The translations under genes were made by a program, and so were the position numbers. Positions 4,612 to 64,000 of a DNA stretch of 64,000 nt are shown one piece after another (the stretch's first letter is position 1; the number at the start of each line of letters is the position of its first letter). The notes under the pieces were generated by a model that saw only the letters and a program-made list of their open reading frames with translations, had not been told where the DNA came from and did not search any database. The DNA is taken from IMG/VR virus record IMGVR_UViG_3300003886_000002; one strand, written 5' to 3'. The stretch is from a virus.

Positions 4612-4639
4612 GGAAGCAACCTAACAGATGGGGGTGACG

Positions 4640-5260
4640 TCACCCAAGGAGGCCGTCCTGGCGCTGTTGGCGGGTAACCGCCAAATGGCATTCTCCACAC
4701 AGGGTTTCCAAGCCGTCGAGATGGTGTATGCACCCGTAATCTGCGTGGCGGCCCTTGACAGGCTGTATGTGGTTAACCTCAAGAGAATAGTTCGTTATGA
4801 CGCGTTTAGCGAGCCTCTCGAACTCTGCCATCATGTCCTCATACCCAATGCCTGTTTCCTTATGGAACTCGCGACGTTGCCTCTTCCCCCGTGTCCCCCC
4901 AGCCATGTAACGGAACCGACCGGGGTCCTTTCGCAGTTCCCCACTAACCCATTCCCGAAACGCGAACCGTTGAGGGTGACGATTTACGATTCGACGCATC
5001 CAACCAACAAAATATGTAACATCGTCAGGGACTGTTCCGTCACGGCCACACTTCACACAGCCACCATCACGTTTAATCGCAGCAGAACGAGCGTCCTGCC
5101 AAGAGTGTTGACAAAGGAAGAGTCTGGTGCACTCATAAGAACACCAGCGGCGGGTAGGTTTCCCAAGATCCTTGTTACACCCACAACAGAACCCGGGGCC
5201 GTCCCAATTGTAGAGCGGGCACGACTCGACGACAAGTTGGGTCTGGGACTTGCGGGCCAT
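4640..5260 (-). CDS. HNH endonuclease
   Basis: RDGGCVKCG...LEVNHIQP...LETLCGECH. Confidence 0.8.
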   Translation of the reverse strand: MARKSQTQLVVESCPLYNWDGPGFCCGCNKDLGKPTRRWCSYECTRLFLCQHSWQDARSAAIKRDGGCVKCGRDGTVPDDVTYFVGWMRRIVNRHPQRFAFREWVSGELRKDPGRFRYMAGGTRGKRQRREFHKETGIGYEDMMAEFERLAKRVITNYSLEVNHIQPVKGRHADYGCIHHLDGLETLCGECHLAVTRQQRQDGLLG

Positions 5261-6189: not shown

Positions 6190-6306
6190 TCAGCGATGTT
6201 TCTTGAAGCCAGAGCGCCCCACGCCAGGTTTCGCTCCGCCAGCATCGTCCGACGCCTTCCGGCACGCCATGAGCTTTCGTTTGGCATTCGCTTCGCTGTT
6301 TCTCAT
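6190..6306 (-). CDS. 38-aa Lys-rich ORF upstream of the tRNA-Lys pair (candidate internal leader)
   Basis: AAGGAGGT RBS; MRNSEANAKRKLMACRKASDDAGGAKPGVGRSGFKKHR. Confidence 0.6.
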   Translation of the reverse strand: MRNSEANAKRKLMACRKASDDAGGAKPGVGRSGFKKHR

Positions 6307-6691: not shown

Positions 6692-7207
6692 CTATGTGAC
6701 TTGATACTGTAAATAAGGAGCCCAAGATTCTTTAGGACTGAACCCGAATACAACCATCAGATCCCCCTTGGGGACAAACGGTTTGACACGAAGAGTCCAT
6801 CTCTCCGCCCCGAAACGCGTTTGAAGCTCTGAAAGCGTCATATCGTCCTTATCTGTGTTGCAACGACGGCATGCCGCTACAACATTCTCCCAACGATGCA
6901 AACCCCCACGAGACCGTGGAACAATATGGTCCACAGTATGTGCCCTCCCGCCACAGTACCCACACTTGTGACTATCCCTACCCAAAACGTTGCGTGTGTT
7001 AAGAGGAATACGTGAACGGTAGGGAACCTTAACGAAACGGTTCAACCTGATTACATCTGGCATAGGGACAGACACAGAAGGGGAACGCACCTCCCCGTTC
7101 CCGCGCTCAACTATCTCTGCCATGTCTTGCAACACAAGGACAACCGCGCGCCTCCACGTAATAACCCTTAACGGCTCCCATGTAGCATTCAGCAACAAAG
7201 TAGACAT
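6692..7207 (-). CDS. HNH endonuclease (McrA-like), inside the tRNA operon
   Basis: LLLNATWEPL, RDSHKCGYCG, TVDHIVPRSRGG, WENVVAACRRCN. Confidence 0.9.
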   Translation of the reverse strand: MSTLLLNATWEPLRVITWRRAVVLVLQDMAEIVERGNGEVRSPSVSVPMPDVIRLNRFVKVPYRSRIPLNTRNVLGRDSHKCGYCGGRAHTVDHIVPRSRGGLHRWENVVAACRRCNTDKDDMTLSELQTRFGAERWTLRVKPFVPKGDLMVVFGFSPKESWAPYLQYQVT

Positions 7208-8152: not shown

Positions 8153-8263
8153 CTAGATGTGCAGCGGTAACTGCTCGGCATCGAACGGTCGAGGCTTGTC
8201 ACGCCCCAAGCGTTGCCGATTCTTATGGGCATGTGCCCCTGTGAGTCGCAGCCGCTTCATCAT
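8153..8263 (-). CDS. leader peptide of tRNA operon A (Leu/Pro/Gln/His/Asn/Lys)
   Basis: MMKRLRLTGAHAHKNRQRLGRDKPRPFDAEQLPLHI; ATG 9 nt after TATGAT. Confidence 0.7.
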   Translation of the reverse strand: MMKRLRLTGAHAHKNRQRLGRDKPRPFDAEQLPLHI

Positions 8264-8272
8264 GGTGACCCT

Positions 8273-8300
8273 ATCATATCAGGTGGGCATGACACGTCAA
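8273..8300 (-). promoter_or_regulatory. promoter of tRNA operon A
   Basis: TTGACG-N16-TATGAT with TGTCATGCCCA motif in the spacer. Confidence 0.75.
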
Positions 8301-9073: not shown

Positions 9074-10255
9074 TCAAGTCCCCTTGTAGTTGAGGACGGC
9101 CTCTAGGGTATGGACAACATCAACCAGGTCAGATTGGGCGTCCATAACAGTCGCAATGTCCTTGTACGCCCCAGGGTGCTCATCTACCAGTTTGGCAGCC
9201 CGCCCGCGGTCCCACGAACGACCCCCCATGGCGGCAGTCAAACTATCTGCATCAAACATCTTTTTCGCTTGCCTGCGCGACATTTTCCGGCCCGCCCCAT
9301 GGCTACATGAGTGATAGGCAGCATCATTGCCTAAACCACGGACAACATATGTAGATGTGCCCATCGACCCTGGGATGACCCCAAGATCCCCCGACCGTGC
9401 ACGGATAGCCCCTTTACGCGTTAACCAGACAGACTTTCCGTGATGCTGTTCCCGGACCGTATAGTTGTGGTGGCAATTGATTCGGCTCTCCTGCAAACCC
9501 ACGCTGACCCCAAGTTCTTCTGCAATGCACCCCAGCACTGCGTCCATCATCTCTTCACGACTCAACAGGGCATAATCCTGTGCCCACAGCATGTCAGATA
9601 TGTAAGCATCGAACTCTAAAGAGCCCTCCACAAGGTATGCAAGATCAGGGTTAGGGATGCTGATGAACCACTCCTGCATCAGATGCTTAGCACGATCAAT
9701 ATGGAAACGAGCCAACTGATTCCCAATTCCGCGGCTACCCGAATGCAAAACTACCCAAACTCCGCCACCCTCGTCTATGCAAACCTCTACGAAATGGTTG
9801 CCTGAGCCGAGTGACCCGAACTGATCGAATACCTTACATGTCTGCCTGTCGTCGAACTCTGTGAACGAATTCGTCTCAGTCCAAAACTTGTGGAACCGTG
9901 TCGACGGCGCTTTCCCGTCATGACCCTTCCCAACCCCCGCGGGGATACTCTGCTCAATCCTTGAGTGAAGCCCCCCAAGGTCATCGGGAAGTTCATCGCC
10001 GCTAATGTTTAGCTTTGCTGCACACATTCCACATCCGATGTCCACCCCGATAGCCGCTGGGATGATTGCCCCACGGGTAGGGATAACTGACCCGATAGTG
10101 GACCCAAGCCCAAAGTGTGCGTCAGGCATCAAAGCTATGTGCCCCTGTACGAACGGCATCAGGGCTGTCTGTGCAGCTTGGGCACATGTGTTATGGTCGA
10201 TGCCCTCAACCCCCCAGGCGAGGACACCTTCTGCTGCCTTCGTTGGTTTTGACAT
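9074..10255 (-). CDS. rtcB: RtcB RNA ligase
   Basis: MPDAHFG, GVDIGCGM, GSGNHF, HSGSRG, HHNY, SCSHGAGR, DEHPGAYK. Confidence 0.97.
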   Translation of the reverse strand: MSKPTKAAEGVLAWGVEGIDHNTCAQAAQTALMPFVQGHIALMPDAHFGLGSTIGSVIPTRGAIIPAAIGVDIGCGMCAAKLNISGDELPDDLGGLHSRIEQSIPAGVGKGHDGKAPSTRFHKFWTETNSFTEFDDRQTCKVFDQFGSLGSGNHFVEVCIDEGGGVWVVLHSGSRGIGNQLARFHIDRAKHLMQEWFISIPNPDLAYLVEGSLEFDAYISDMLWAQDYALLSREEMMDAVLGCIAEELGVSVGLQESRINCHHNYTVREQHHGKSVWLTRKGAIRARSGDLGVIPGSMGTSTYVVRGLGNDAAYHSCSHGAGRKMSRRQAKKMFDADSLTAAMGGRSWDRGRAAKLVDEHPGAYKDIATVMDAQSDLVDVVHTLEAVLNYKGT

Positions 10256-10293: not shown

Positions 10294-11061
10294 TCAGGAC
10301 CTTAGTCGTGCAATCTCTTCATCTAGCGCATCAGTATCCAAAATCTTCCAAGCCAAAGACCCCGTTTTCGAGTGATTCAAACCAAGGATAGATGTGTCCC
10401 CTCGCTTGCCAACTAGCCGATGGTGATAGTGGGCATGGACTGCAAGCCTAGGGTTAAGTTCATCTACTACCCCATCCAAGGCGTGACGATTAGCCATCGA
10501 CTGATGCTCTAGATTGTACGACAGATTGAACTGTCGCAATATTGCAGACAGATCACTGTAATTAGGGGAATCGTGCGTCAGCAGGACATCGACACCGCCG
10601 CCCCCGTTGCGTAAAGCACGCTCTACGTCCCCATAAGTGATTGTCTCCTGAGGCCACCACGAGATGAATGGGATACGGTGGCTGACGTCAACAGAGAACG
10701 CCCCCCCTAGAGACATGAAGCGCACCCCACCCCACTCCCACACTAAGCCGCGTGGGAGATAAGTAATGTGGCTATGCAACTGCACCATAGAAGGAGCATC
10801 CACCTTCGCCCCCAAGAATTCCATTACCTCAAAATTCTCATGGTTCCCATCCAACCAGTAAAGAGGCATATCTGCCTCAGAAAACCACCTGTTAAGGTTC
10901 CCCAAAGTCCTGTTGACATCTTCCTGGTTACACGACCATATAAACCCGAAGTCCCCCAGTTGCACCACTGCGTCAGCACGGACCCTCTTCGCGTAACGAA
11001 TTACCTTTGATTGCATCCACGCGAAGTCGCCGTGTGTGTCCCCAAGTAGCAACAATCTCAT
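10294..11061 (-). CDS. calcineurin-like metallophosphoesterase
   Basis: GDTHG, QLGDFG, DGNHEN, LTHDSP, HAHYH. Confidence 0.9.
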   Translation of the reverse strand: MRLLLLGDTHGDFAWMQSKVIRYAKRVRADAVVQLGDFGFIWSCNQEDVNRTLGNLNRWFSEADMPLYWLDGNHENFEVMEFLGAKVDAPSMVQLHSHITYLPRGLVWEWGGVRFMSLGGAFSVDVSHRIPFISWWPQETITYGDVERALRNGGGGVDVLLTHDSPNYSDLSAILRQFNLSYNLEHQSMANRHALDGVVDELNPRLAVHAHYHHRLVGKRGDTSILGLNHSKTGSLAWKILDTDALDEEIARLRS

Positions 11062-11093
11062 GGCAGACACATTATCATACAGGGTGGACAAGA

Positions 11094-13638: not shown

Positions 13639-13731
13639 TCAGTCTATGCAGACTGTGCCTGTCCCTAAGGCGCCACCACGCGTAAACGTGGCAGCGGTGA
13701 TGATTCGTGCCGCTCGCTGTACTGTTCTCAT
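13639..13731 (-). CDS. leader peptide of tRNA operon B (Met/Ala/Gly/Phe/Val/Cys/Ile/Thr)
   Basis: GAGGAGG RBS; MRTVQRAARIITAATFTRGGALGTGTVCID. Confidence 0.8.
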   Translation of the reverse strand: MRTVQRAARIITAATFTRGGALGTGTVCID

Positions 13732-13769
13732 TGCGTTGGGCCTCCTCTCAGGTCCAGACCTGTGAAAGC

Positions 13770-13797
13770 ATCATAGCATAGATGCATGCCAGGTCAA
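13770..13797 (-). promoter_or_regulatory. promoter of tRNA operon B
   Basis: TTGACC-N16-TATGAT with extended TGn -10. Confidence 0.75.
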
Positions 13798-13804
13798 CCC
13801 CATA

Positions 13805-14488
13805 CTAGATGTTGTTACCTAAACGAATATCAACCAATAAGTCGTTGACCGCCCCCACGTTGGGGACTTCTGGCAAAAGGGAGTCAATGTTGCCTAGGCG
13901 GTCCAACAACTCCATAATCATTTGTTCGTAGTGCCCCACATTTGATACAGCAAGTTCCCCAGCCTCGAAACATGCATCTGCCTCTTCAGGCTCCAAACGC
14001 ACCTTTAACTGCCCCTCACGGAGAATATGCGCCCCCTGGATGGCCAACCGGTAACAGTGACGGCCGTGCTTCTCCGTTCGTTTCCTGAGATCCGATGAGA
14101 AGTCCCCACGCTGTTTAAGCCGATTCAGTTGCTGAAAGGCATACCCACCGTAGGTGTTACGGACCCGCTGTGACAAGAACAGGCTACGTGCATCGATAAG
14201 AACGTCTCCAATCTGTGTTCTAAGCACATATTCTGGGAGCCACAACAACTCGCTTATCGTTGGGTTAGCAGCCAAGGCAAGACGGCAGAACTTCCCCAAC
14301 TCGTGTATCGTACGATCCGGGGATCTCTGAACATAAGACTGATCCGTTTTGGATGCACCATTCAAACCCAAGACAGCATCTAGGGGTTCTACATAGATCC
14401 CAAGGAAATCTTGGTCACTATATGGGGTCGCGAGCCCATATGCACGAGACCCTACCATCCCCTCTAAAACAACATTGTGCCCACTCAT
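13805..14488 (-). CDS. Pol-beta-family nucleotidyltransferase (YcgL/RlaP-like)
   Basis: VGSRAYGLATPYSDQDFLGIY, ELGKFCRLALAANPTISELLW. Confidence 0.85.
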   Translation of the reverse strand: MSGHNVVLEGMVGSRAYGLATPYSDQDFLGIYVEPLDAVLGLNGASKTDQSYVQRSPDRTIHELGKFCRLALAANPTISELLWLPEYVLRTQIGDVLIDARSLFLSQRVRNTYGGYAFQQLNRLKQRGDFSSDLRKRTEKHGRHCYRLAIQGAHILREGQLKVRLEPEEADACFEAGELAVSNVGHYEQMIMELLDRLGNIDSLLPEVPNVGAVNDLLVDIRLGNNI

Positions 14489-15459: not shown

Positions 15460-15494
15460 AGGGGAGATGCTAACAGGTGGGCATGACCGATGTT

Positions 15495-16115: not shown

Positions 16116-16170
16116 GTGGGACAGGTTACCTGATGGGGATGACACCACTGCCAATCTGATCCTATCTAAG

Positions 16171-16241
16171 TGCCCCGCCGGGGAGTCGAACCCGCGAACG
16201 GTAGAGGTAGAAACCCCACCTGAGCTTCCGGCTCGCGAGGC
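16171..16241 (-). tRNA. tRNA-Arg(TCT), atypical
   Basis: GGTGGGG-TTTCTAC-CTCTACC; no 8/9 linker. Confidence 0.75.
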
Positions 16242-16242
16242 G

Positions 16243-16314
16243 TGGCGCCCTTGGCGGGAGTCGAACCCGCTCGCCGCGTGTAGGAGACGCGTGTCTGGGT
16301 CCACCAGCAAGGGC
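16243..16314 (-). tRNA. tRNA-Arg(CCT), atypical
   Basis: CGCGT-CTCCTAC-ACGCG, CCA. Confidence 0.8.
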
Positions 16315-16318
16315 ATTG

Positions 16319-16392
16319 TCGGGCACCCGAGATTCGAACTCGGACTACCGGCCCCCCAGGCCGGGGTGCAACCAAACCGACACTCGTGCCCG
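16319..16392 (-). tRNA. tRNA-Pro(GGG)
   Basis: CCGGC-CTGGGGG-GCCGG. Confidence 0.85.
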
Positions 16393-16394
16393 CG

Positions 16395-16463
16395 CACCCA
16401 GGGTGAGACTCGAACTCACTAAACGTGGCTTCGGATGCCGCGTCCCATTCCTTTGGCCTGGGT
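16395..16463 (-). tRNA. tRNA-Arg(CCG), atypical
   Basis: ACGCGGC-ATCCGAA-GCCACGT. Confidence 0.75.
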
Positions 16464-16587
16464 AAATCGTCACCGTATCCCCTTTCAACCAAGTGTTTGC
16501 AGCAAACCCCTACAGTCTACCTGCACCCATATGTGTTGGCTTCCCCCACCACGGTAGAGACTAGTTTATCCTTGTGTGGCGAAGTTG

Positions 16588-16656
16588 CACCCCCGGCGCG
16601 AATCGAACGCGCTCGCCAGGATTCGTAGTCCTAGGTCCCTATCCATGGGCGGGGGT
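16588..16656 (-). tRNA. tRNA-Arg(ACG), atypical
   Basis: CTAGGA-CTACGAA-TCCTGG. Confidence 0.8.
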
Positions 16657-16743
16657 ATTGTTACCTACCCTGTCTTCTGTGTTCCGTGTTCTGGTATACC
16701 CGAACAGTGTAACCTATTCCATTCTTTAACATTCTTGTTTATG

Positions 16744-16821
16744 TGGCAGGGTCGTGAGGAGTCGAACCCCATCGTGTATCAGCAGGTTTGGAAGCTGCCC
16801 GGCAACCGTCGCCTCGACCCC
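16744..16821 (-). tRNA. tRNA-Trp(CCA)
   Basis: GCAGC-TTCCAAA-CCTGC, G73 CCA. Confidence 0.75.
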
Positions 16822-16837
16822 AGGTTGTAAATCTCAG

Positions 16838-16910
16838 TACCCCCAACGGGATTTGAACCCGTGTTACCTACGTGAAAGGCAGGCGTCCTGGGCCGCTAGA
16901 CGATGGGGGC
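16838..16910 (-). tRNA. tRNA-Glu(TTC)
   Basis: Canonical; CCTGC-CTTTCAC-GTAGG. Confidence 0.95.
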
Positions 16911-16927
16911 TTGTTCTGTGTGTTCCG

Positions 16928-17000
16928 CGGTCCTGCGGGGAGTCGAACCCCGATCTTCGCCTCGACAGGGCGTTATAATGAGCCGTTATACGACAGGACC
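16928..17000 (-). tRNA. tRNA-Asp(GTC)
   Basis: CGCC-CTGTCGA-GGCG. Confidence 0.9.
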
Positions 17001-17004
17001 TCAG

Positions 17005-17076
17005 TACCCCGTAGGAGAATCGAACTCCTGTTTCTGCCATGAGAAAGCAGTGTCCTAGCCACTAAACGAACGGGGC
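17005..17076 (-). tRNA. tRNA-Glu(CTC)
   Basis: CTGCT-TTCTCAT-GGCAG. Confidence 0.9.
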
Positions 17077-17111
17077 AGGTAGTGACAGCAAGGGCATCCC
17101 GCCCCCGTCAC

Positions 17112-17207
17112 TCAGATATCTCGTCTGCGCCTGGGCTCAGAATCAACGCGCGGCGAACGGGGCCATCGTGGCTCAACCTGTTCTACGGGTACCTCTCGCG
17201 TTTCCAT
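17112..17207 (-). CDS. leader peptide of tRNA operon C (Glu/Asp/Trp/Arg/Pro)
   Basis: METREVPVEQVEPRWPRSPRVDSEPRRRRDI; ATG 9 nt after TATAGT. Confidence 0.8.
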   Translation of the reverse strand: METREVPVEQVEPRWPRSPRVDSEPRRRRDI

Positions 17208-17216
17208 AGCAAAGCC

Positions 17217-17244
17217 ACTATAACAGGTAGCCATGACATGTCAA
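17217..17244 (-). promoter_or_regulatory. promoter of tRNA operon C
   Basis: TTGACA-N16-TATAGT. Confidence 0.8.
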
Positions 17245-17250
17245 GGCAGC

Positions 17251-17292
17251 AATAAAACAACCTACGCCCCCTGCCGAAACAGGGGGCGTAGG
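17251..17292 (-). terminator. intrinsic terminator
   Basis: CCTACGCCCCCTG-TTTCGG-CAGGGGGCGTAGG followed by TTGTTTTATT. Confidence 0.85.
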
Positions 17293-17515
17293 AGAAGCGA
17301 GGACTTGGCTGCCTCGAACAGGGGGCATCGGGTTGCCAATGCATTTGCCCCTGTACCACTCAATTGTCTGCCGACATCAGATTCCACCATCCACCGATGG
17401 CAGCCCTCCGCACAGACGTGCCTCGGGACCTTCTGACTTAAGTGTGCTGTGCGGCCAGCCGATGCGTACCGCTATTGAGCCACTCCTTACTCTCAGGAAG
17501 CTATCCCTTGAGCAA
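17255..17515 (-). ncRNA. candidate structured ncRNA (about 260 nt)
   Basis: Own promoter (17521-17542) and terminator, no credible ORF, several nested helices. Confidence 0.5.
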
Positions 17516-17542
17516 CCGACACCCTACCACATGGGGGTGACA

Positions 17543-18088: not shown

Positions 18089-18474
18089 CGTCTAAACCTC
18101 GGCCACCATCTGCGATGGGAGTAGGCCAATATGAGGTGTGAGAATAGGTGCGCCACGCTTGGGGAAGGGATCGCAGCAAATGCTGTCGCCTCAAAGGACA
18201 AATCGGGTTCACGGAATACTTCACGTACATCAACCCAATGCTTGATCCTGTAGTAGAAGTCAAGTAGCGCTTGCTGGTCATCTACTTCTAGAACGATAAG
18301 GTAATTCCCGTTAGGGTCGTCATGCCAACTCTTTGATGCGTCAGGAGCCCGTAGGCACATCTCTGCGACTGCGTGGCCAACCTGGGCGGCACGAAGCCCC
18401 GGGGGGAGATCCCCGCGGACAACGACATACATTTTCGTTTTTCCTGCCATTGCAGGAAGATCATCCGGTCTCAC
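18085..18474 (-). CDS. peptidyl-tRNA hydrolase, Pth2-like
   Basis: KMYVVVRGDLPPGLRAAQVGHAV, YLIVLEV, FREPDL. Confidence 0.8.
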   Translation of the reverse strand: MRPDDLPAMAGKTKMYVVVRGDLPPGLRAAQVGHAVAEMCLRAPDASKSWHDDPNGNYLIVLEVDDQQALLDFYYRIKHWVDVREVFREPDLSFEATAFAAIPSPSVAHLFSHLILAYSHRRWWPRFRR

Positions 18475-19133
18475 CTATAGTCCTTCCGTTTTATCTTCAC
18501 AGTGATACGTTTCCCTCTACCGTCGTAGATGTCAACTGCTGGACGCCCTACGATCCCTTCGGGGTGTGCAACCCCTTGCCACTGCGACCCTATATGGCCA
18601 TTTACGACGAAACCTTCTGCTGTGCAAATGTCGGCGGTAGCAGCCCCATCGAATTGGACCGTAGGGACTACGTCAATGCCCAATTTGTTGGCAATATCAA
18701 CAACGTTTGCACGTGAAAGCCAATAACGCCCTACCCGCACATCGAACAGCACGAAGTCTACGCTGTCCGCAATGTAATCCCCGCCTCCTTTCTGGATGCC
18801 AGCCCCATATCCTTCACCATACAACGTCACGTAATAGTTGGTGTCTGGGAAGGATTCGCGCCATGGGATAGTCTCTTGCAAACCTATCAGGCGTGCCAAA
18901 AGAGCAGAAGGGATCTGGGCACGGTCAGTGCGACCCCCGATATCGTATAGGGAATCATCTGGGTCTGTGAGGTCCTTCCCAAGCCTAATGTTGGTTCCGT
19001 CGATCTTCTCGGTCCAAACCCATTGGTTGTAGCGAAGGTACTCGAATACGGGGAGGCTAAACTGACCGTCGATGATCTTGCCTTTCTCCCCCCGCTTGTA
19101 CAGGCCGTTGATCTTAGGGTAGGCAGCGAACAT
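18471..19133 (-). CDS. ATP-dependent RNA ligase (Rnl2-type)
   Basis: YPKI, TEKIDGTN, LYGEGYG, FVLFDV, EGIV, VKIK. Confidence 0.9.
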   Translation of the reverse strand: MFAAYPKINGLYKRGEKGKIIDGQFSLPVFEYLRYNQWVWTEKIDGTNIRLGKDLTDPDDSLYDIGGRTDRAQIPSALLARLIGLQETIPWRESFPDTNYYVTLYGEGYGAGIQKGGGDYIADSVDFVLFDVRVGRYWLSRANVVDIANKLGIDVVPTVQFDGAATADICTAEGFVVNGHIGSQWQGVAHPEGIVGRPAVDIYDGRGKRITVKIKRKDYR

Positions 19134-19167
19134 GGGGATCACCTTACTAGGTGGGCATGACCCTGGG

Positions 19168-19581
19168 TCACGCCAAGTATGTTTCATGCATCTTGCGGAT
19201 GACCGCCTCACCAACGTGTCCCACCTCGCGGGATGCGTCGCGGCGAATGCACTCATCTAGGGGGACGCTGCGAAAATCTCGTATAAGGAACCTGGCCCCA
19301 TAGATGACAGCGAAACCCTCCAGGGCTGCAATGCACGATGGGTGAAAATTCGTGTCATCGCAGACAACAGAAAATCCTCTCCCCAGGAAACAACCCAGGA
19401 TGACGTCGCGGGCAGCTATGATCGTGACCTCGTTTTCCTCAGACCAAACCCCCACATCGACCATGCAACGTAAATCATCCCTGTTGATCCTCTTCACGGC
19501 ACCCCCCGAGCGAGACACGATACCTTTGGCCCAGGTTGTCTTACCAGATGCAGGGAGCCCAATGGTTGCGATCAAATCCAT
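19168..19581 (-). CDS. polynucleotide kinase (kinase domain only)
   Basis: GLPASGKTT, INRDDLR, DDTN, ECIRRDASR. Confidence 0.9.
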   Translation of the reverse strand: MDLIATIGLPASGKTTWAKGIVSRSGGAVKRINRDDLRCMVDVGVWSEENEVTIIAARDVILGCFLGRGFSVVCDDTNFHPSCIAALEGFAVIYGARFLIRDFRSVPLDECIRRDASREVGHVGEAVIRKMHETYLA

Positions 19582-21132: not shown

Positions 21133-21548
21133 TGGTGGAGCCGGGGGGTATCGAACCCCCGTCCAATGAGAGATTACGCTGTCCGATGTACAACCATCCT
21201 TCGTCTTTCCGAAGCGTCAGTGCAATGGGGTTTCCCCTGTCGCAACTAGCGGGTCTTTCCCCGCAGTCGTGAACAGTATGCCTGTCCCGGCATTCAGTCT
21301 TTCCTGAATGTCAACTCGTCTGTCCGTGTTGTCAGACTGATTGGATAGCAAGGTTCAGTCAGACCCCGTCCTGCTCGTCTATCAAACGAGGACGCTTTCG
21401 CAAGCATCAAACTCTGCCCAAAGGGCGTCAGATTCAGGAGCCTCGGTGTTGTCCTCGGCGTGTATTTTGGTGCCCCGTTTCACGAGTCTGAGCAACTCGG
21501 GTTGCGTTCGGCGCTCACAGGCTCATTGTCGAATCCTGTTTCAGCCCC
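21133..21548 (-). ncRNA. ssrA: tmRNA
   Basis: 5' GGGGCTGAAACAGGATTCGAC; 3' GTTCGATACCCCCCGGCTCCACCA; tag ORF 21459-21382. Confidence 0.95.
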
Positions 21549-22554: not shown

Positions 22555-22576
22555 GAGAGAGGACACGCGCGTGCCC

Positions 22577-22633
22577 TCAGTCGCTAGATGAGCGACTCGA
22601 ATACGATGCGGACGAATACAGAAGACGATTCAT
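22577..22633 (-). CDS. leader peptide of tRNA operon D (Tyr/Ser)
   Basis: MNRLLYSSASYSSRSSSD; ATG 9 nt after TATGAT. Confidence 0.85.
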   Translation of the reverse strand: MNRLLYSSASYSSRSSSD

Positions 22634-22673
22634 GACTATCTCATCATAACACACGGGGGGGACATCGATAGAC

Positions 22674-27790: not shown

Positions 27791-30700
27791 TCATGTACCA
27801 CAGCATGGGGGCTCTGCCTCATCTTGCACATCTGCAACCTCGGGGTTGATTGTCTCTACCCCATTATCGTTGCCGACGCGTCCCAAGATTGCAAAAAGAC
27901 GTGACGCTGCACGTTCTGCACGGATAGGTCGCAGAGCCCCACGAAGCTCAACAATCTCTGCACGAAGCTCAGCCACGTCAGCCCCAAGTGATCCCACCTG
28001 GGGAAATGTGCGCTGCACCATACCTGCCGCGACAAGTGACCTCATTTCACCAGAACCTGAATCGTAGATACCCTGAGGGTTACGACCAGCAGATGCAACC
28101 AAACTGTCTTGGACAATGAACCCTGAGAGGTTCACAGCCAACAGCCCAACCACCTCAAGGTTCTTCCTGATCCTACGCCAGTCAGGAGAGATATCTGAGC
28201 CACGGAGCGCTTGCACCTGCTCCGGAGAAGCGCTAGGTCGAACCGCCCCAGCGGCAACAATTCCCCACGCATTCTCATACAGGTGAACGTCTGCTACAGC
28301 ACACCCCGTATCTGCATAGTGCGCCTCAGCATCCGAAGCCAACAACCGCAGGTTGGGGTGAACCGTATCCATGTAGACAGGGCCACATAGCACCTGCTCG
28401 CCCTCATCAGTAACAACCCCGGGCTTATGGAATGCACTGAACCTGTTCTCTGTATGTGGGACACCCACACACTTATCGGAGAACCCGATATGGCAAGATC
28501 CCCACCGGGCAATCAACCCATAGCAGCGTCCATCTGCATATACCTGAAACTCCTCAGGCTCACCCATGTCGTCAAGTTCGAACCAAGAAGTAGGGGGATT
28601 CAAAGGAGGCGTCAAATTCTTGTTCCCTGCACTGGCGACAAGCGAATCAGGACTCACACGCTGCATGCGCTCTCCCTGCAAAGCGATAGGGACTGGTGAT
28701 GTAAAGCGCCACACATCCCCACGCTCATACCCAGAGGCAACCAATGCTTCGTCATCAGATGCTATGTCTGCGTCAATCACGTGTACCTGTGCCTCTTGGA
28801 ACGCTGGAAAAGGTGTAAGCGTGGCTCCCATGAGCCTGCCTTCTATGAGGACCTGTAGTATATCGTCATCAGAAAGCATCGCGTCAAGAGGGTCTACCTG
28901 ACCGCCACTTGCGTCTTGGAACTCGATAGTTACCATGTCTATGTCTGCGGAAACTCCACGCATGGTACCTTCCGCTATGAGGCGGCGCGCTTCCTTCCCT
29001 TGCTCCCCAGAATCAAAGGAACCACGTCCTATGATCTCTTGGCCTACACGCTCAATCTCCTGTATAGACCCGGCGATAGCTGCACCATCGTGGCCCTCAG
29101 CGTTTACTGTCTGCAACATGAGGGGCAGTGGCAGCTTGCGCCACGTTAGGGTACCTTCGCTTATGAGGCGCCCATCACCAGAAACAACCCCTTCCACAAT
29201 GAGTACCCCCTCCCATTCGAAGTCGCCGCTGACAACGTCCCCATCGATGATCGTATCGTCGCTAGACGTTGCGCTATCCCCATCTGTTCCATCTGGCTGA
29301 GAGTTCGGGCCGTCAACGATTTCATCGTCTCCTGCAAGCTCCTGTACGGAGTCGTCGCTCAACCCCAGTTCGGTTTCTAGTTCCTGTTGTTCCTGAGGGG
29401 TCAATGTTGACTGGCTCTGCTCAACCCATCGGTGAACAATTTCACCAATAAGTTCCCCGTCATTGAGTTCAGTAATATCGCGCTTGCCTGCAAGGTTCGC
29501 TACCTGTTCAAACCACTGAGCCCTCATGTCGCCTATAGCGCTTTCTACATCTGTGATGGGCTCGGCCTCACCTAGATCTGGGACGTTGACCCCTCCGTCG
29601 CGGAGGTGGCGGGCAAGGTGGTTAAAGACCCCTTGGTAATCGCTTGTTGGGATGGTGGAATCATCGATTACGGTAATGGCAGAATGGGCTGCCCACATGA
29701 CTGCTGCCCCAGGGTTGCCATCTTGGTCCACCACGTGGTGAATGAACTTGTATGCGGTCTTTGACCCGGCGGCTCTGTCCTCGTCTCGCCAAGCGAAGAT
29801 ACGTGCGTAGTAGCTTTGGTCTTCTCCCTGGCGGGTACGTTTCTTCGCCTCGTCACCGTTCCACCCTTCGAAGGTGGCAGGGTTGATCGTGGGGGTGCTA
29901 TGGGATGCTAGTGGCCCAAACTCTGCCACTATTTCAGTGGCTGTTGTGTCAAAGTCTTCGTTGGGGTCTACAGGGTTGTTGATGTAGTAGAGATCTACTA
30001 AGTCTGACATGTACCTATGGTCAGTAGGGTTAACAACTACCCCTTCTTCTACGGCCTGTGCGAGCAGTCCAGCATCTTGCAGCGACATCAGCTCAGGTGG
30101 TTCAAGGTCCGCATCGCTCAAATGGGATGCCAGGTGTTTGTAAACCCCTTCCCTGTCTCCACTCGGGATGGTTGTTCCCCCACGTGCCCCATTTAGGACA
30201 CCGATGCCTGTAGACGCCGCGACTGTTGATGCATCCCCTGGGGTTCCGTCATCACCAACGAAGTGATGTATGAACCTGTAGGCGGCTTTCACAGTAGTGT
30301 CTGCCTCATCATCACGCCACGCGTAGATACGAGCGAAATAGTCCTCGTCGCTAGGGGACGTAACCTTCTTCTCGTTCTCCGGCCCATCCCAAGTGTCGAC
30401 AGATGTAGGGGTGTCATGAGGGCTGATAGCAGCAAACGGTTCACTTCCGTCGTCCATCTCGTCTTCATCATCTGTCGTGTCTGTGCCCAAATCGGCAGCA
30501 ATGCCACTCATGAATTCCAAGATGGCTGCCCACTGATCTTCCGTAACCGATGACGATTCTTCACCGTCAGGAGTATCCTCGCTTTCAACCAACTTATCCA
30601 TAGCTTCCTGGGCGGACTCTACAGAATCGTGGCAGCTGATGACAGCCCCGGATTCTGGATCTACGAGTGCCACTGTTGATTCCCCATCGGTGCTCTCGAC

Positions 30701-31417
30701 ACAGTCAGCAGAGTCCTCAACAATGTCCAACCCCGCGGGGTCACCTACAAAGGTCTCCTGTGTACTACCTACTACGGTCTTTGCGGCCACGGTCAATTCC
30801 TCCTCAGTCGGCCCGGAAAGACCCACGTCAACGATTTCTGTACCCCAACGTAATGTGATGTTATCTAAATTCAATGGTAGACCAACTAGGTCCGCGCTGT
30901 CGGGAACTGGCCCATAGTTCAACGTAATATGTGGCTGGAAGTCGTGGTCTTGACGCACTGAGACGCCATTCTCGTTTAGCAGATGCACCAAATCGCTTCT
31001 GAACTCACCTAACCCAGGGGCATCTACCAACGCCAAAGTAATCCCATCAGTCCCGCTCTTCCCGAAAGATCCGATACCTGCTACTTCCCCATCGAAAGGG
31101 GAATAACGCTCTGCAACCCCAGCGATAACTGCCTCTACTGTTTCGCGATCCAACCCGTCACTGATAGCCCCCAGGGAAGCAAGAGTGACATGTAGAGATT
31201 CAGGCTGTTCCCCGCCTGACCGGGCCAACTCTTGTTTCTGGTCGTCTGTAGGCTCAACAGTAACGATGGCACTGTTGGAATGGTCAGCAAACGCCTGTGC
31301 GCGTTCCATCTTTGACGATAGAAGCACAAACAGGTTCTCAGGGAACTCCCCTACACTAACCAGCCCAGGGGTAGACACATCGGCAGAGCCACCGCTTATG
31401 GTAGTGATATCAGTCAT
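27791..31417 (-). CDS. head maturation protease-like protein fused to 2H phosphoesterase and duplicated domain
   Basis: LHVTL and PHITL motifs; two ARI[YF]AWRD...Y[RK]FIHH repeats; WEGVLIVEG..SGDGR..LPLPL..GHDGA..GVSAD; directly after portal. Confidence 0.75.
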   Translation of the reverse strand: MTDITTISGGSADVSTPGLVSVGEFPENLFVLLSSKMERAQAFADHSNSAIVTVEPTDDQKQELARSGGEQPESLHVTLASLGAISDGLDRETVEAVIAGVAERYSPFDGEVAGIGSFGKSGTDGITLALVDAPGLGEFRSDLVHLLNENGVSVRQDHDFQPHITLNYGPVPDSADLVGLPLNLDNITLRWGTEIVDVGLSGPTEEELTVAAKTVVGSTQETFVGDPAGLDIVEDSADCVESTDGESTVALVDPESGAVISCHDSVESAQEAMDKLVESEDTPDGEESSSVTEDQWAAILEFMSGIAADLGTDTTDDEDEMDDGSEPFAAISPHDTPTSVDTWDGPENEKKVTSPSDEDYFARIYAWRDDEADTTVKAAYRFIHHFVGDDGTPGDASTVAASTGIGVLNGARGGTTIPSGDREGVYKHLASHLSDADLEPPELMSLQDAGLLAQAVEEGVVVNPTDHRYMSDLVDLYYINNPVDPNEDFDTTATEIVAEFGPLASHSTPTINPATFEGWNGDEAKKRTRQGEDQSYYARIFAWRDEDRAAGSKTAYKFIHHVVDQDGNPGAAVMWAAHSAITVIDDSTIPTSDYQGVFNHLARHLRDGGVNVPDLGEAEPITDVESAIGDMRAQWFEQVANLAGKRDITELNDGELIGEIVHRWVEQSQSTLTPQEQQELETELGLSDDSVQELAGDDEIVDGPNSQPDGTDGDSATSSDDTIIDGDVVSGDFEWEGVLIVEGVVSGDGRLISEGTLTWRKLPLPLMLQTVNAEGHDGAAIAGSIQEIERVGQEIIGRGSFDSGEQGKEARRLIAEGTMRGVSADIDMVTIEFQDASGGQVDPLDAMLSDDDILQVLIEGRLMGATLTPFPAFQEAQVHVIDADIASDDEALVASGYERGDVWRFTSPVPIALQGERMQRVSPDSLVASAGNKNLTPPLNPPTSWFELDDMGEPEEFQVYADGRCYGLIARWGSCHIGFSDKCVGVPHTENRFSAFHKPGVVTDEGEQVLCGPVYMDTVHPNLRLLASDAEAHYADTGCAVADVHLYENAWGIVAAGAVRPSASPEQVQALRGSDISPDWRRIRKNLEVVGLLAVNLSGFIVQDSLVASAGRNPQGIYDSGSGEMRSLVAAGMVQRTFPQVGSLGADVAELRAEIVELRGALRPIRAERAASRLFAILGRVGNDNGVETINPEVADVQDEAEPPCCGT

Positions 31418-42371: not shown

Positions 42372-42904
42372 GTTGCTAGAACCTACCATATGGGGGTGAC
42401 ACTCATCTTTTGGGTTGTGTGTTGCGGGGACGGAGATGCCTAAAGGCATCTAACAGTGCAGCAGGGAAGATCCTACACACATGTGGGGGGCTGCGCCAGG
42501 TGGGGCCGGGGTTCGGTTATTCCCACACCAGTTCCATGTGTTCGTAGGGGTCGTCGGGGTTAACCCCGTGTGCCGTGAATGTCATTCGAACATTCGTTTC
42601 TATGGCAGACGCTTCCGGTGCGTTGACTGTGCCACCTATGAGTCTTGTGATTGTTTCGTGGTGGGCTTCCAGGAGGTGGTGTGTCGTGTATGCCGCTATG
42701 AGAGGGTGGACGATGACCGTCTGGTTGGATGATAGGAAGTTTTCGATTTCCCAGGAACATCCTCTTTGCTGGCACGCGATGGTTACTGCGGCGGTGTCTC
42801 CCATCAGCAGCTGTGGCGATAGGCCCCCTGTCGATTTCATGGTCGAACCTCTTTTGGGTTTGGGTTGTAATGCAACTTCACTTTGCAGCCATTACCATTG
42901 GGGT

Positions 42905-62953: not shown

Positions 62954-64000
62954 CCCGAGTAGGAAAAACCGGCGCAGCAAACGTGCACGACGAAAGAAAA
63001 AGCAACACCGGACAGGTCACGGACAACCCCCTCCACCCGAACGTGTCATGCCCCCCGTGATGACGCCAGAGCAGATAGAGACTGCATTCGCCCCCCTCAG
63101 GAAGGCATTCGCCAATGCACGAAAACCAACACCAGAAACGTCCGATATGGAGACCAACGAAAGAGTTTCCGGTACACCCACAGAAAAGTAACCCAGACAT
63201 GAAACATGTCCCCACAAACGGATGGGCAGGACGACTCGGACAAATCACTGCGTTTACCGTAACTCTGGCCGTCGCACTGCTGTTGCTGGCCCCACTGGTG
63301 TGGGGGCTCAGGCAAGCATGGGAATGGGCTCTCGGCTAGACAACACGAACCTTGATCCAGTCATGGGGACGGTAGATCACCCGGAGGCTATCTACCGTCC
63401 CCCCGCTCATCGTGGCAGCGGCGCCCAGGAGCGTCCGTCCTCAGGGCTGTAGCCGAGAAAGGTGAGGTCAGCAGTGTTGCCGCTGAAGGTGGCGTGACCG
63501 TTCGTGAGCCCGTGGTAGGTGCACACGACCCCGACAGGCTCGTCAGGATCGTCAGGGTCATCCACTCCTGTGCCGACACCACCGCTGATGTGGGCGCCGG
63601 AAAGGATGATGCGCTGCCCCACACGGGGCAGGTTGCCGGGGATAAGTGGTCTCATGTGGTTCTCCTTTGGTTGGTTCTACCTGACAAATGCCATTATACC
63701 CCTTGGGGGTGACATGTCAAGTGGGAAGTTTATCTAACCGCGCTGACCTGTCTAGTGCTGTCGGGCTAGGCGACACGACACGTCATGAGCAAAACCTCGC
63801 GGTCCGTGCCGAACCAAGGCTTGAGCGCACCGGTTCCCACAATCGTCGGGCCGTCATGGTCCAACATGTCGGCGAGGAACCTGGGGTTGAATGCACCTGG
63901 ATCGTCGGCACCCGTAACCTGCACCGCGGGGCCGGTGAGGGTGGGTCCATCGGCTTCGCTCAGCGTCATGCGCCACACGTCGCCATATTGGACGATCCGT

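Follow-up and report, generated by a model that had tools for sequence, protein, structure and literature searches.

A short leader reading frame that mirrors the tRNA cluster behind it in an uncultured actinobacterial-type phage: a probable gauge of tRNA supply

Why phages carry tRNA genes, and how these genes are controlled, are open questions. Current ideas on the roles of phage tRNAs are that they compensate for codon usage or let the phage evade defences aimed at tRNAs (PMC10264068). The locus analyzed here puts the question of control in a concrete form: what does a short reading frame do directly ahead of a tRNA cluster when most of its codons call for the amino acids that the same cluster serves? 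The locus lies in the window, that is, the whole stretch of 64,000 nucleotides that was analyzed (IMG/VR record IMGVR_UViG_3300003886_000002), whose source contig measures 158,210 nt. PHROG matches in the window comprise terminase, portal, head protease, RtcB, RNA ligase, nucleotidyltransferase and methyltransferases, and terminase-like tblastn matches were all below 60% identity and came mostly from actinobacterial phages. Together these results argue for an actinobacterial-type phage and, judged from its sequence, the window belongs to a large and uncultured one; megablast found no close cultured phage, and a more distant search returned generic tRNA matches only. ARAGORN identified 29 tRNAs and 1 tmRNA in the window, arranged in four blocks that are all on the minus strand. 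Codon usage of the phage is nearly even, with a GC3 of 0.55.

To place the locus we used 70 metagenome loci, 18 of which were scanned for tRNAs. Only two of the scanned metagenome contigs, L002 and L003, are syntenic with the window; in both, an ortholog of the upstream 181-residue gene is followed by the leader, here called leader C, and then by tRNA-Glu(CTC), and the tRNA order of L003 is identical to that of the window. A further relative, L001, is an IMG/VR contig. In the direction of transcription, the locus contains the following elements:

17261..17292, minus strand: intrinsic terminator of the upstream unit, a 14-bp stem followed by a T-run (-29.9 kcal/mol, equalled by 0 of 200 shuffles)
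17217..17244, minus strand: leader C promoter, with the -35 hexamer at 17244-17239, a 16-nt spacer and an extended -10 at 17222-17217
17112..17207, minus strand: leader ORF C, with the start codon at 17207-17205, the stop codon at 17114-17112 and 31 sense codons
17160..17174, minus strand: ORF-internal hairpin predicted by RNAalifold, codons 12-16, including the sole Trp codon
17081..17112, minus strand: stop-codon hairpin, 12 pairs and a 3-nt bulge, starting at the last base of the stop codon
17077..17080, minus strand: spacer of 4 nt between the hairpin and tRNA-Glu
16170..17076, minus strand: tRNA cluster C, with Glu-CTC, Asp-GTC, Glu-TTC, Trp-CCA, Arg-ACG, an Arg-CCG-like gene, Pro-GGG, Arg-CCT and Arg-TCT

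A first-pass annotation had proposed a leader ORF rich in E, D, W, R and P at 17080..17244, followed by a hairpin that begins at its stop codon. The ORF is borne out, and it, its promoter and its hairpin now have coordinates of their own: the edge at 17244 is the start of the -35 hexamer, and the hairpin does begin in the stop codon, at its last base (17112). The codon counts given there, namely 8 Arg including AGG and AGA, both Glu codons, three CCC, one Trp and 4 Val, are also correct, and the leader holds 8 Arg, 5 Glu, 5 Pro, 2 Asp, 1 Trp and 4 Val in all.

The terminator at 17292-17261 closes the upstream unit and isolates the leader C promoter. This promoter agrees with the consensus at 11 of 12 positions and ranks first among the 11 promoter-like sites of an 18-kb region, a number of sites that is not above chance (shuffle mean 13.5). 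Both of its hexamers are retained in L002 and L003. Its spacer holds a phage-wide motif that also stands ahead of about 20 other starts in the window; this motif, which lies in the spacer next to the -10 (for instance at 4625-4639, 15474-15488, 19148-19162 and 42387-42401), was matched 28 times, where shuffles average 14.4. The motif is combined with a near-consensus -35 only at the promoters of tRNA clusters A, B and C and at one site at 63700. At many protein genes of the phage the ATG lies 6-8 nt past the -10 of this motif, so that these mRNAs are predicted to be leaderless, and leaderless mRNAs are common in Actinobacteria. The distance from -10 to ATG is 9 nt in leaders A, C and D of the window, 7 nt in leader C of L003 and 10 nt in that of L002. 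Leader C is thus predicted to be near-leaderless, with a 5' UTR of 0-3 nt; given the 9-nt spacing against the 6-8 nt of protein genes, a 5' UTR of 2-3 nt could weaken leaderless initiation.

The first gene of cluster C is tRNA-Glu(CTC), with its 5' end at 17076. With default settings ARAGORN called the two Glu genes, Asp, Pro-GGG, Arg-CCT and Arg-TCT; Trp-CCA and Arg-ACG were called only at a relaxed threshold, and default calls were obtained at the syntenic positions of L003. The Arg-CCG-like gene (approximately 16395-16463, minus strand) was called neither by ARAGORN, default or relaxed, nor by Rfam. Inspected by eye, it has good acceptor, anticodon and T arms and an aberrant D-arm; its 3' end belongs to a family of tRNA 3'-end repeats, and a counterpart is present in L003 at approximately 5170-5240. 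No tRNA of the cluster matches the four Val codons of the leader, for which the loss of a tRNA-Val had been suggested, together with a check of the operon in relatives. That idea is not supported: L003 carries the same tRNA set with no Val, no more than two of the four leader Val codons are conserved, and the tRNA-Val of the phage is located in cluster B.

We then asked how specific the composition of leader C is. Of the 30 codons that follow its start, 21 encode Glu, Asp, Trp, Arg or Pro, the amino acids of its own cluster; measured against the six-frame background of the window, this has a binomial tail of 1.3e-6. None of 457 other short ATG ORFs in the window is as enriched, and none of 20,000 dinucleotide shuffles of the ORF reached 21. 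The alternative frames of the same DNA hold 12/29 and 6/29 residues of this set. At the level of codons, 19 of the 30 can be read by cluster C anticodons under wobble rules. The enrichment of leader C is specific to its frame and, by the assignment given below, to its cluster.

The other tRNA clusters of the window have leaders too, each listed here with the number of residues from its own cluster's set and the number of shuffles reaching it:

8153..8300, minus strand: sister unit A, with a promoter at 8300-8273 and a 36-codon ORF at 8263-8153, before tRNAs for Leu (three), Pro, Gln and His and, further on, Gln, Asn and Lys (two); own-set residues 17/35, reached by 11 of 20,000 shuffles
13639..13797, minus strand: sister unit B, with a promoter at 13797-13770, a Shine-Dalgarno site and a 30-codon ORF at 13731-13639, before tRNAs for Met, Ala, Gly, Phe, Val, Cys, Met, Ile and Thr (three); own-set residues 22/29, reached by 3 of 20,000 shuffles
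22577..22664, minus strand: sister unit D, with a promoter motif and -10 and an 18-codon ORF at 22633-22577, before tRNAs for Tyr and Ser; own-set residues 10/17, reached by 35 of 20,000 shuffles

All 4 leaders match their own cluster best, and among the 24 permutations of leaders over clusters the identity assignment scores 70 and the runner-up 50. Because the amino-acid sets of the four clusters jointly cover all 20 amino acids, general codon usage of the phage cannot explain this pattern. Two further features of cluster A were recorded. A fifth mini-ORF of 38 codons, which has a Shine-Dalgarno site, sits inside the cluster (6190-6306, minus strand), immediately ahead of tRNA-Lys(TTT) and tRNA-Lys(CTT); by raw count, 6 of the 37 codons after its start are Lys codons (3 AAA and 3 AAG), which fits the same mirror rule. 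Between tRNA-His and tRNA-Gln, an ORF at approximately 6692-7206 (minus strand) has Cys/His motifs of HNH type, seen by eye, and resembles a homing endonuclease insertion. A terminator-like hairpin considered for leader A was discarded as unstable, since 184 of 200 shuffles fold as well.

These observations lead us to regard leader C as a presumably translated mini-gene whose codons mirror the downstream tRNAs and which, with some reserve, we think probably serves as a ribosome-read gauge of their supply that sets the output of the cluster. The direction of the response and the step that is blocked are each much less certain than this reading as a sensor. The element through which a ribosome on the leader could act is the stop-codon hairpin, which in all 5 C- and D-type leaders begins within the stop codon and leaves 3-6 nt to the tRNA (in leader D of the window it lies just downstream of the ORF, at approximately 22559-22578). 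Its stability in the window is -17.7 kcal/mol (4 of 200 shuffles equal), and in L002 and L003 it is -21.7 and -25.1 kcal/mol (0 and 1 of 200 shuffles equal). In the alignment of the three sequences, both partners have changed in 3 of the 14 consensus pairs and a single partner in another 3, and 94.7% of the cells are paired. This covariation gives modest support to the hairpin; the two relatives, the only ones with leader C, are close to each other (78% identity in the flanking gene), and the evidence from covariation is therefore thin. Two exact repeats at the locus were rejected: a 12-nt repeat shared by the hairpin 3' arm (17086-17097) and the 5' end of tRNA-Arg(CCT) (16305-16316), and a 10-nt repeat shared by the leader ORF and the 5' end of tRNA-Glu. 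The first is probably due to chance and the second looks so, and neither is kept in L003 or L002.

The chain of events that we favor would start from scarce cognate charged tRNAs, on which ribosomes would slow on the leader ORF. A ribosome held on the final codons, which include the invariant AGA, CGA and GAT, all decoded by cluster tRNAs, would cover the 5' arm of the hairpin and leave it open; in the folding model, the hairpin is lost only with a ribosome at about codon 28 or later. Once open, the hairpin would no longer hold back expression of the whole cluster. Since the leader codons mirror every member of the cluster and not the first tRNA alone, the controlled step should act on the transcript as a whole. 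The block would most likely be hairpin-dependent pausing of the host polymerase, or its termination with the aid of a factor, just inside the first tRNA gene, and less likely a restriction of RNase P access to the first tRNA. As a result, tRNA output would go up in a shortage of these tRNAs and down when supply is ample. Judged by composition, the leaders have no clear Rho loading site, as they show no marked excess of C over G (C/G ratio of leader C 0.82 in the window and 1.02 and 1.30 in the relatives; leaders overall 0.82-1.78).

Extended to the genome, this reading describes a demand-driven supply circuit: a complete tRNA set split into separately promoted clusters, each gated by a codon-mirror mini-gene, which reads, per codon family, what tRNAs are missing in the infected cell and raises only the matching cluster through a ribosome-gated stop-codon hairpin, without a canonical terminator. 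We put this wider proposal forward tentatively and would stop short of calling it likely. Defences that cut tRNAs, or host tRNAs that are rare to begin with, could cause the shortfall sensed by such a circuit.

The simple kinetic reading of the same layout has the opposite sign, since a ribosome following close behind the polymerase would likewise prevent the hairpin. In pyrBI, the position of the ribosome occludes a hairpin, and in tnaC, a ribosome stalled at the stop codon blocks Rho. Leader C resembles both in that the ribosome would act by its position; unlike pyrBI it has no U-tract terminator, and unlike tnaC it has no evident C-rich Rho site, and what it senses would be codon supply and not UTP (pyrBI) or free tryptophan (tnaC). 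If the coupling were positive as in pyrBI, only a ribosome pacing the polymerase would prevent the hairpin, and transcription would track decoding as a stringent-like brake. The stop codon within the base of the hairpin would suit this arrangement, as a ribosome that completes the ORF would melt the hairpin, and so would the predicted near-leaderless start, which would permit very early ribosome loading. However, tRNA supply would then be cut as decoding fails, which seems maladaptive for a phage with a full tRNA set and tRNA repair genes, and the arrangement requires a polymerase stop at the hairpin that is itself hypothetical. We therefore consider positive coupling unlikely.

A classical attenuator of the trp type, in which the hairpin is an intrinsic terminator and stalling of the ribosome favors an exclusive antiterminator, is a shade less probable still. 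The order of elements is the expected one, with a leader ORF containing regulatory codons, then a GC-rich hairpin, then the structural genes; the ORF is promoter-proximal, its translation is suggested by the substitution patterns of the leaders, and its codons match the product of the operon. In addition, the predicted free RNA of the window, also in its minimum-energy fold, pairs ORF codons 14-19 with the 5' arm of the hairpin, so that the hairpin itself has a probability of 0.04. In L002 and L003, however, this competing pairing is missing and the hairpin probability is 0.94 and 0.99; since the pairing is seen in the window only, a trp-style switch is not a conserved feature of the leader. 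The hairpin also lacks a U-tract in the window (spacer of 4 nt), L002 (3 nt) and L003 (6 nt), whereas the clear terminators of the phage carry T-runs. With neither an intrinsic terminator with a U-tract nor a conserved exclusive antiterminator, the locus is not a classical trp-type attenuator.

The leaders were compared between relatives, using the following orthologs:

L002 1115-1210: leader C, 31 codons
L003 4571-4663: leader C, 30 codons
L003 7845-7937: leader B
L001 9062-9118: leader D

The three C leaders have the same start and frame, and their stops align with one another even though the stop codons are not the same; the sole indel among them is an in-frame one of 3 nt in L003. Identity to the window at the DNA level is 68-69% in leader C and 58-61% in the flanking gene (L002 and L003). 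The flanking gene has 85 invariant residues with degenerate codons, of which 20 use one codon in all three sequences; in the leader this holds for 10 of 14 (tail 2e-4), among them the AGA, CGA and GAT that form the final three conserved sense codons. This high codon identity could reflect RNA stems within the ORF instead of codon sensing: the ORF-internal hairpin is enclosed by a 5-bp long-range stem that pairs codons 3-4 with 20-21, the inner helix has 94% of its cells paired, and the outer helix has 100% paired and one compensatory pair. Leader C as a whole is not unusually stable (z = -0.13). Its own-set content is lower in the relatives, at 17/30 in L002 and 17/29 in L003. In leader B, 4 codons differ synonymously and 13 non-synonymously between the window and L003, 11 of the 13 new residues stay within the cluster B set (tail 0.0016), and the Shine-Dalgarno site is conserved. 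The substitutions thus keep the composition and not the peptide. In leader D, 8 codons differ between the window and L001 and 7 of these differ synonymously. Taken together, the substitution patterns bear what looks like the mark of a translated frame that is selected for which tRNAs it uses.

This comparison bears on the two remaining alternatives. In one, the ORF is translated without any control of tRNAs, either for a function of the peptide or to protect the 5' leader, and the hairpin stabilizes the leader RNA released by RNase P. A seven-residue core is indeed invariant in the three C leaders, two of its residues are from outside the own set, and a 3' hairpin is a common stabilizer of RNA. 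This leaves unexplained, however, why every one of the four leaders matches its own cluster best and why the residue changes of leader B stay in the cluster set, and we rate it as improbable, on a par with trp-type attenuation. In the other, which is very improbable, the leader is a non-coding structured RNA or processing signal with a fortuitous reading frame, as the conserved stems within the ORF, a nucleotide conservation that could act at the RNA level, and a frame +2 that is stop-free in leader C of L003 and in both leader Bs might suggest, but against which stand the frame-specific enrichment, the conserved start and stop position, the in-frame indel, the single non-synonymous change in leader D and the Shine-Dalgarno site of leader B.

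How, then, does the proposed tRNA gauge relate to known systems? Leader-peptide attenuators include trpL, hisL and pheL, the multivalent thrL and ilv leaders, and pheM of pheST. Leader C is similar to them as a short 5' ORF rich in codons that would report the supply of the operon product, with several amino acids sensed at once as in the multivalent leaders; it differs in that the genes under the proposed control are tRNAs, that there is neither a U-tract terminator nor a conserved antiterminator, and that its start is predicted to be near-leaderless. Translational attenuation, as in ermC or the mycobacterial Cys short ORFs, does not fit the site downstream of the hairpin, where we found no ribosome-binding site or ORF and where the tRNA begins 4 nt on. 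The polycysteine short ORFs of mycobacteria are described as leaderless, with a stalled ribosome that blocks an RNA helix and no intrinsic terminator (Canestrari et al., 10.1101/834739). Leader C shares with them the short ORF, predicted to be near-leaderless, the actinobacterial setting, the proposed ribosome-blocked helix and the lack of a terminator; their helix, in contrast, masks the ribosome-binding site of a protein gene that lies downstream (10.1101/834739). As the genes downstream of leader C are tRNAs, its output step must be a different one. According to an account of the whiB7 uORF of mycobacteria, its sequence drifts across species while the amino-acid enrichment is kept, and stalling is thought to switch expression on (PMC10274678). 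Leader B likewise drifts while its enrichment is kept; unlike leader C, the whiB7 uORF as described there uses antitermination, senses mainly alanine and controls a transcription factor (PMC10274678). These two are the nearest systems in the likely host clade, and neither controls tRNA genes. A literature search, with subscription journals largely outside its scope, turned up no description of leader ORFs ahead of tRNA genes. If leader C is the gauge we propose, the phage would measure decoding directly and make tRNAs on demand, and sensing by leader peptides would extend from amino-acid synthesis to the tRNA pool. The design without a classical terminator asks for a different output mechanism. 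The window offers a clean test case, because four to five units in one genome partition the 20 amino acids and so provide built-in specificity controls.

Wider searches with elements of the system returned little. Rfam gave no match on leader C, and the only homolog of a 40-codon extended form of its ORF in the protein collection was itself. A pattern of the leader core hit 6 loci, none with a tRNA, which we took as chance matches. A leader D pattern scanned over the collection found L001 again and no other locus. No match was obtained with the flanking protein and two promoter patterns against viral contigs, with an alignment of the flanking protein against genome contigs, or with a tRNA-Met pattern against viral and genome contigs. 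Two loci with relatives of RtcB (L078 and L079) have no syntenic tRNA clusters, and two distant loci (L007 and L025) have tRNA clusters with no obvious leader ORF ahead of them, as judged by eye.

Several neighbors of the leaders are worth recording. Upstream of leader C, the unit closed by the terminator (17261-17542, minus strand) consists of a phage-type promoter motif, approximately 230 nt without a convincing ORF and the strong terminator; it folds well (z = -3.45, partly from the terminator), is absent in L003, and in L002 an extra ORF takes its place. This unit is a possible small RNA. The tmRNA, at 21133-21548 (minus strand) in the window and at 332-744 in L003, encodes an unusual acidic tag of 25 residues whose last residues are not the usual Ala-Ala; L003 conserves most of the tag, and the corresponding place in L001 is occupied by a protein gene. 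Genes for an RtcB ligase, a metallophosphoesterase, a nucleotidyltransferase and an RNA ligase are interleaved with the tRNA clusters (9074-10255, 10294-11091, 13805-14488 and 18471-19256, respectively, minus strand) and form a tRNA repair kit beside the full tRNA set. Finally, a protein of 1208 residues (27791-31417, minus strand) has RNA-ligase-like PHROG matches in its N-terminal part and PHROG matches to portal or virion proteins in its C-terminal part, an unusual fusion.
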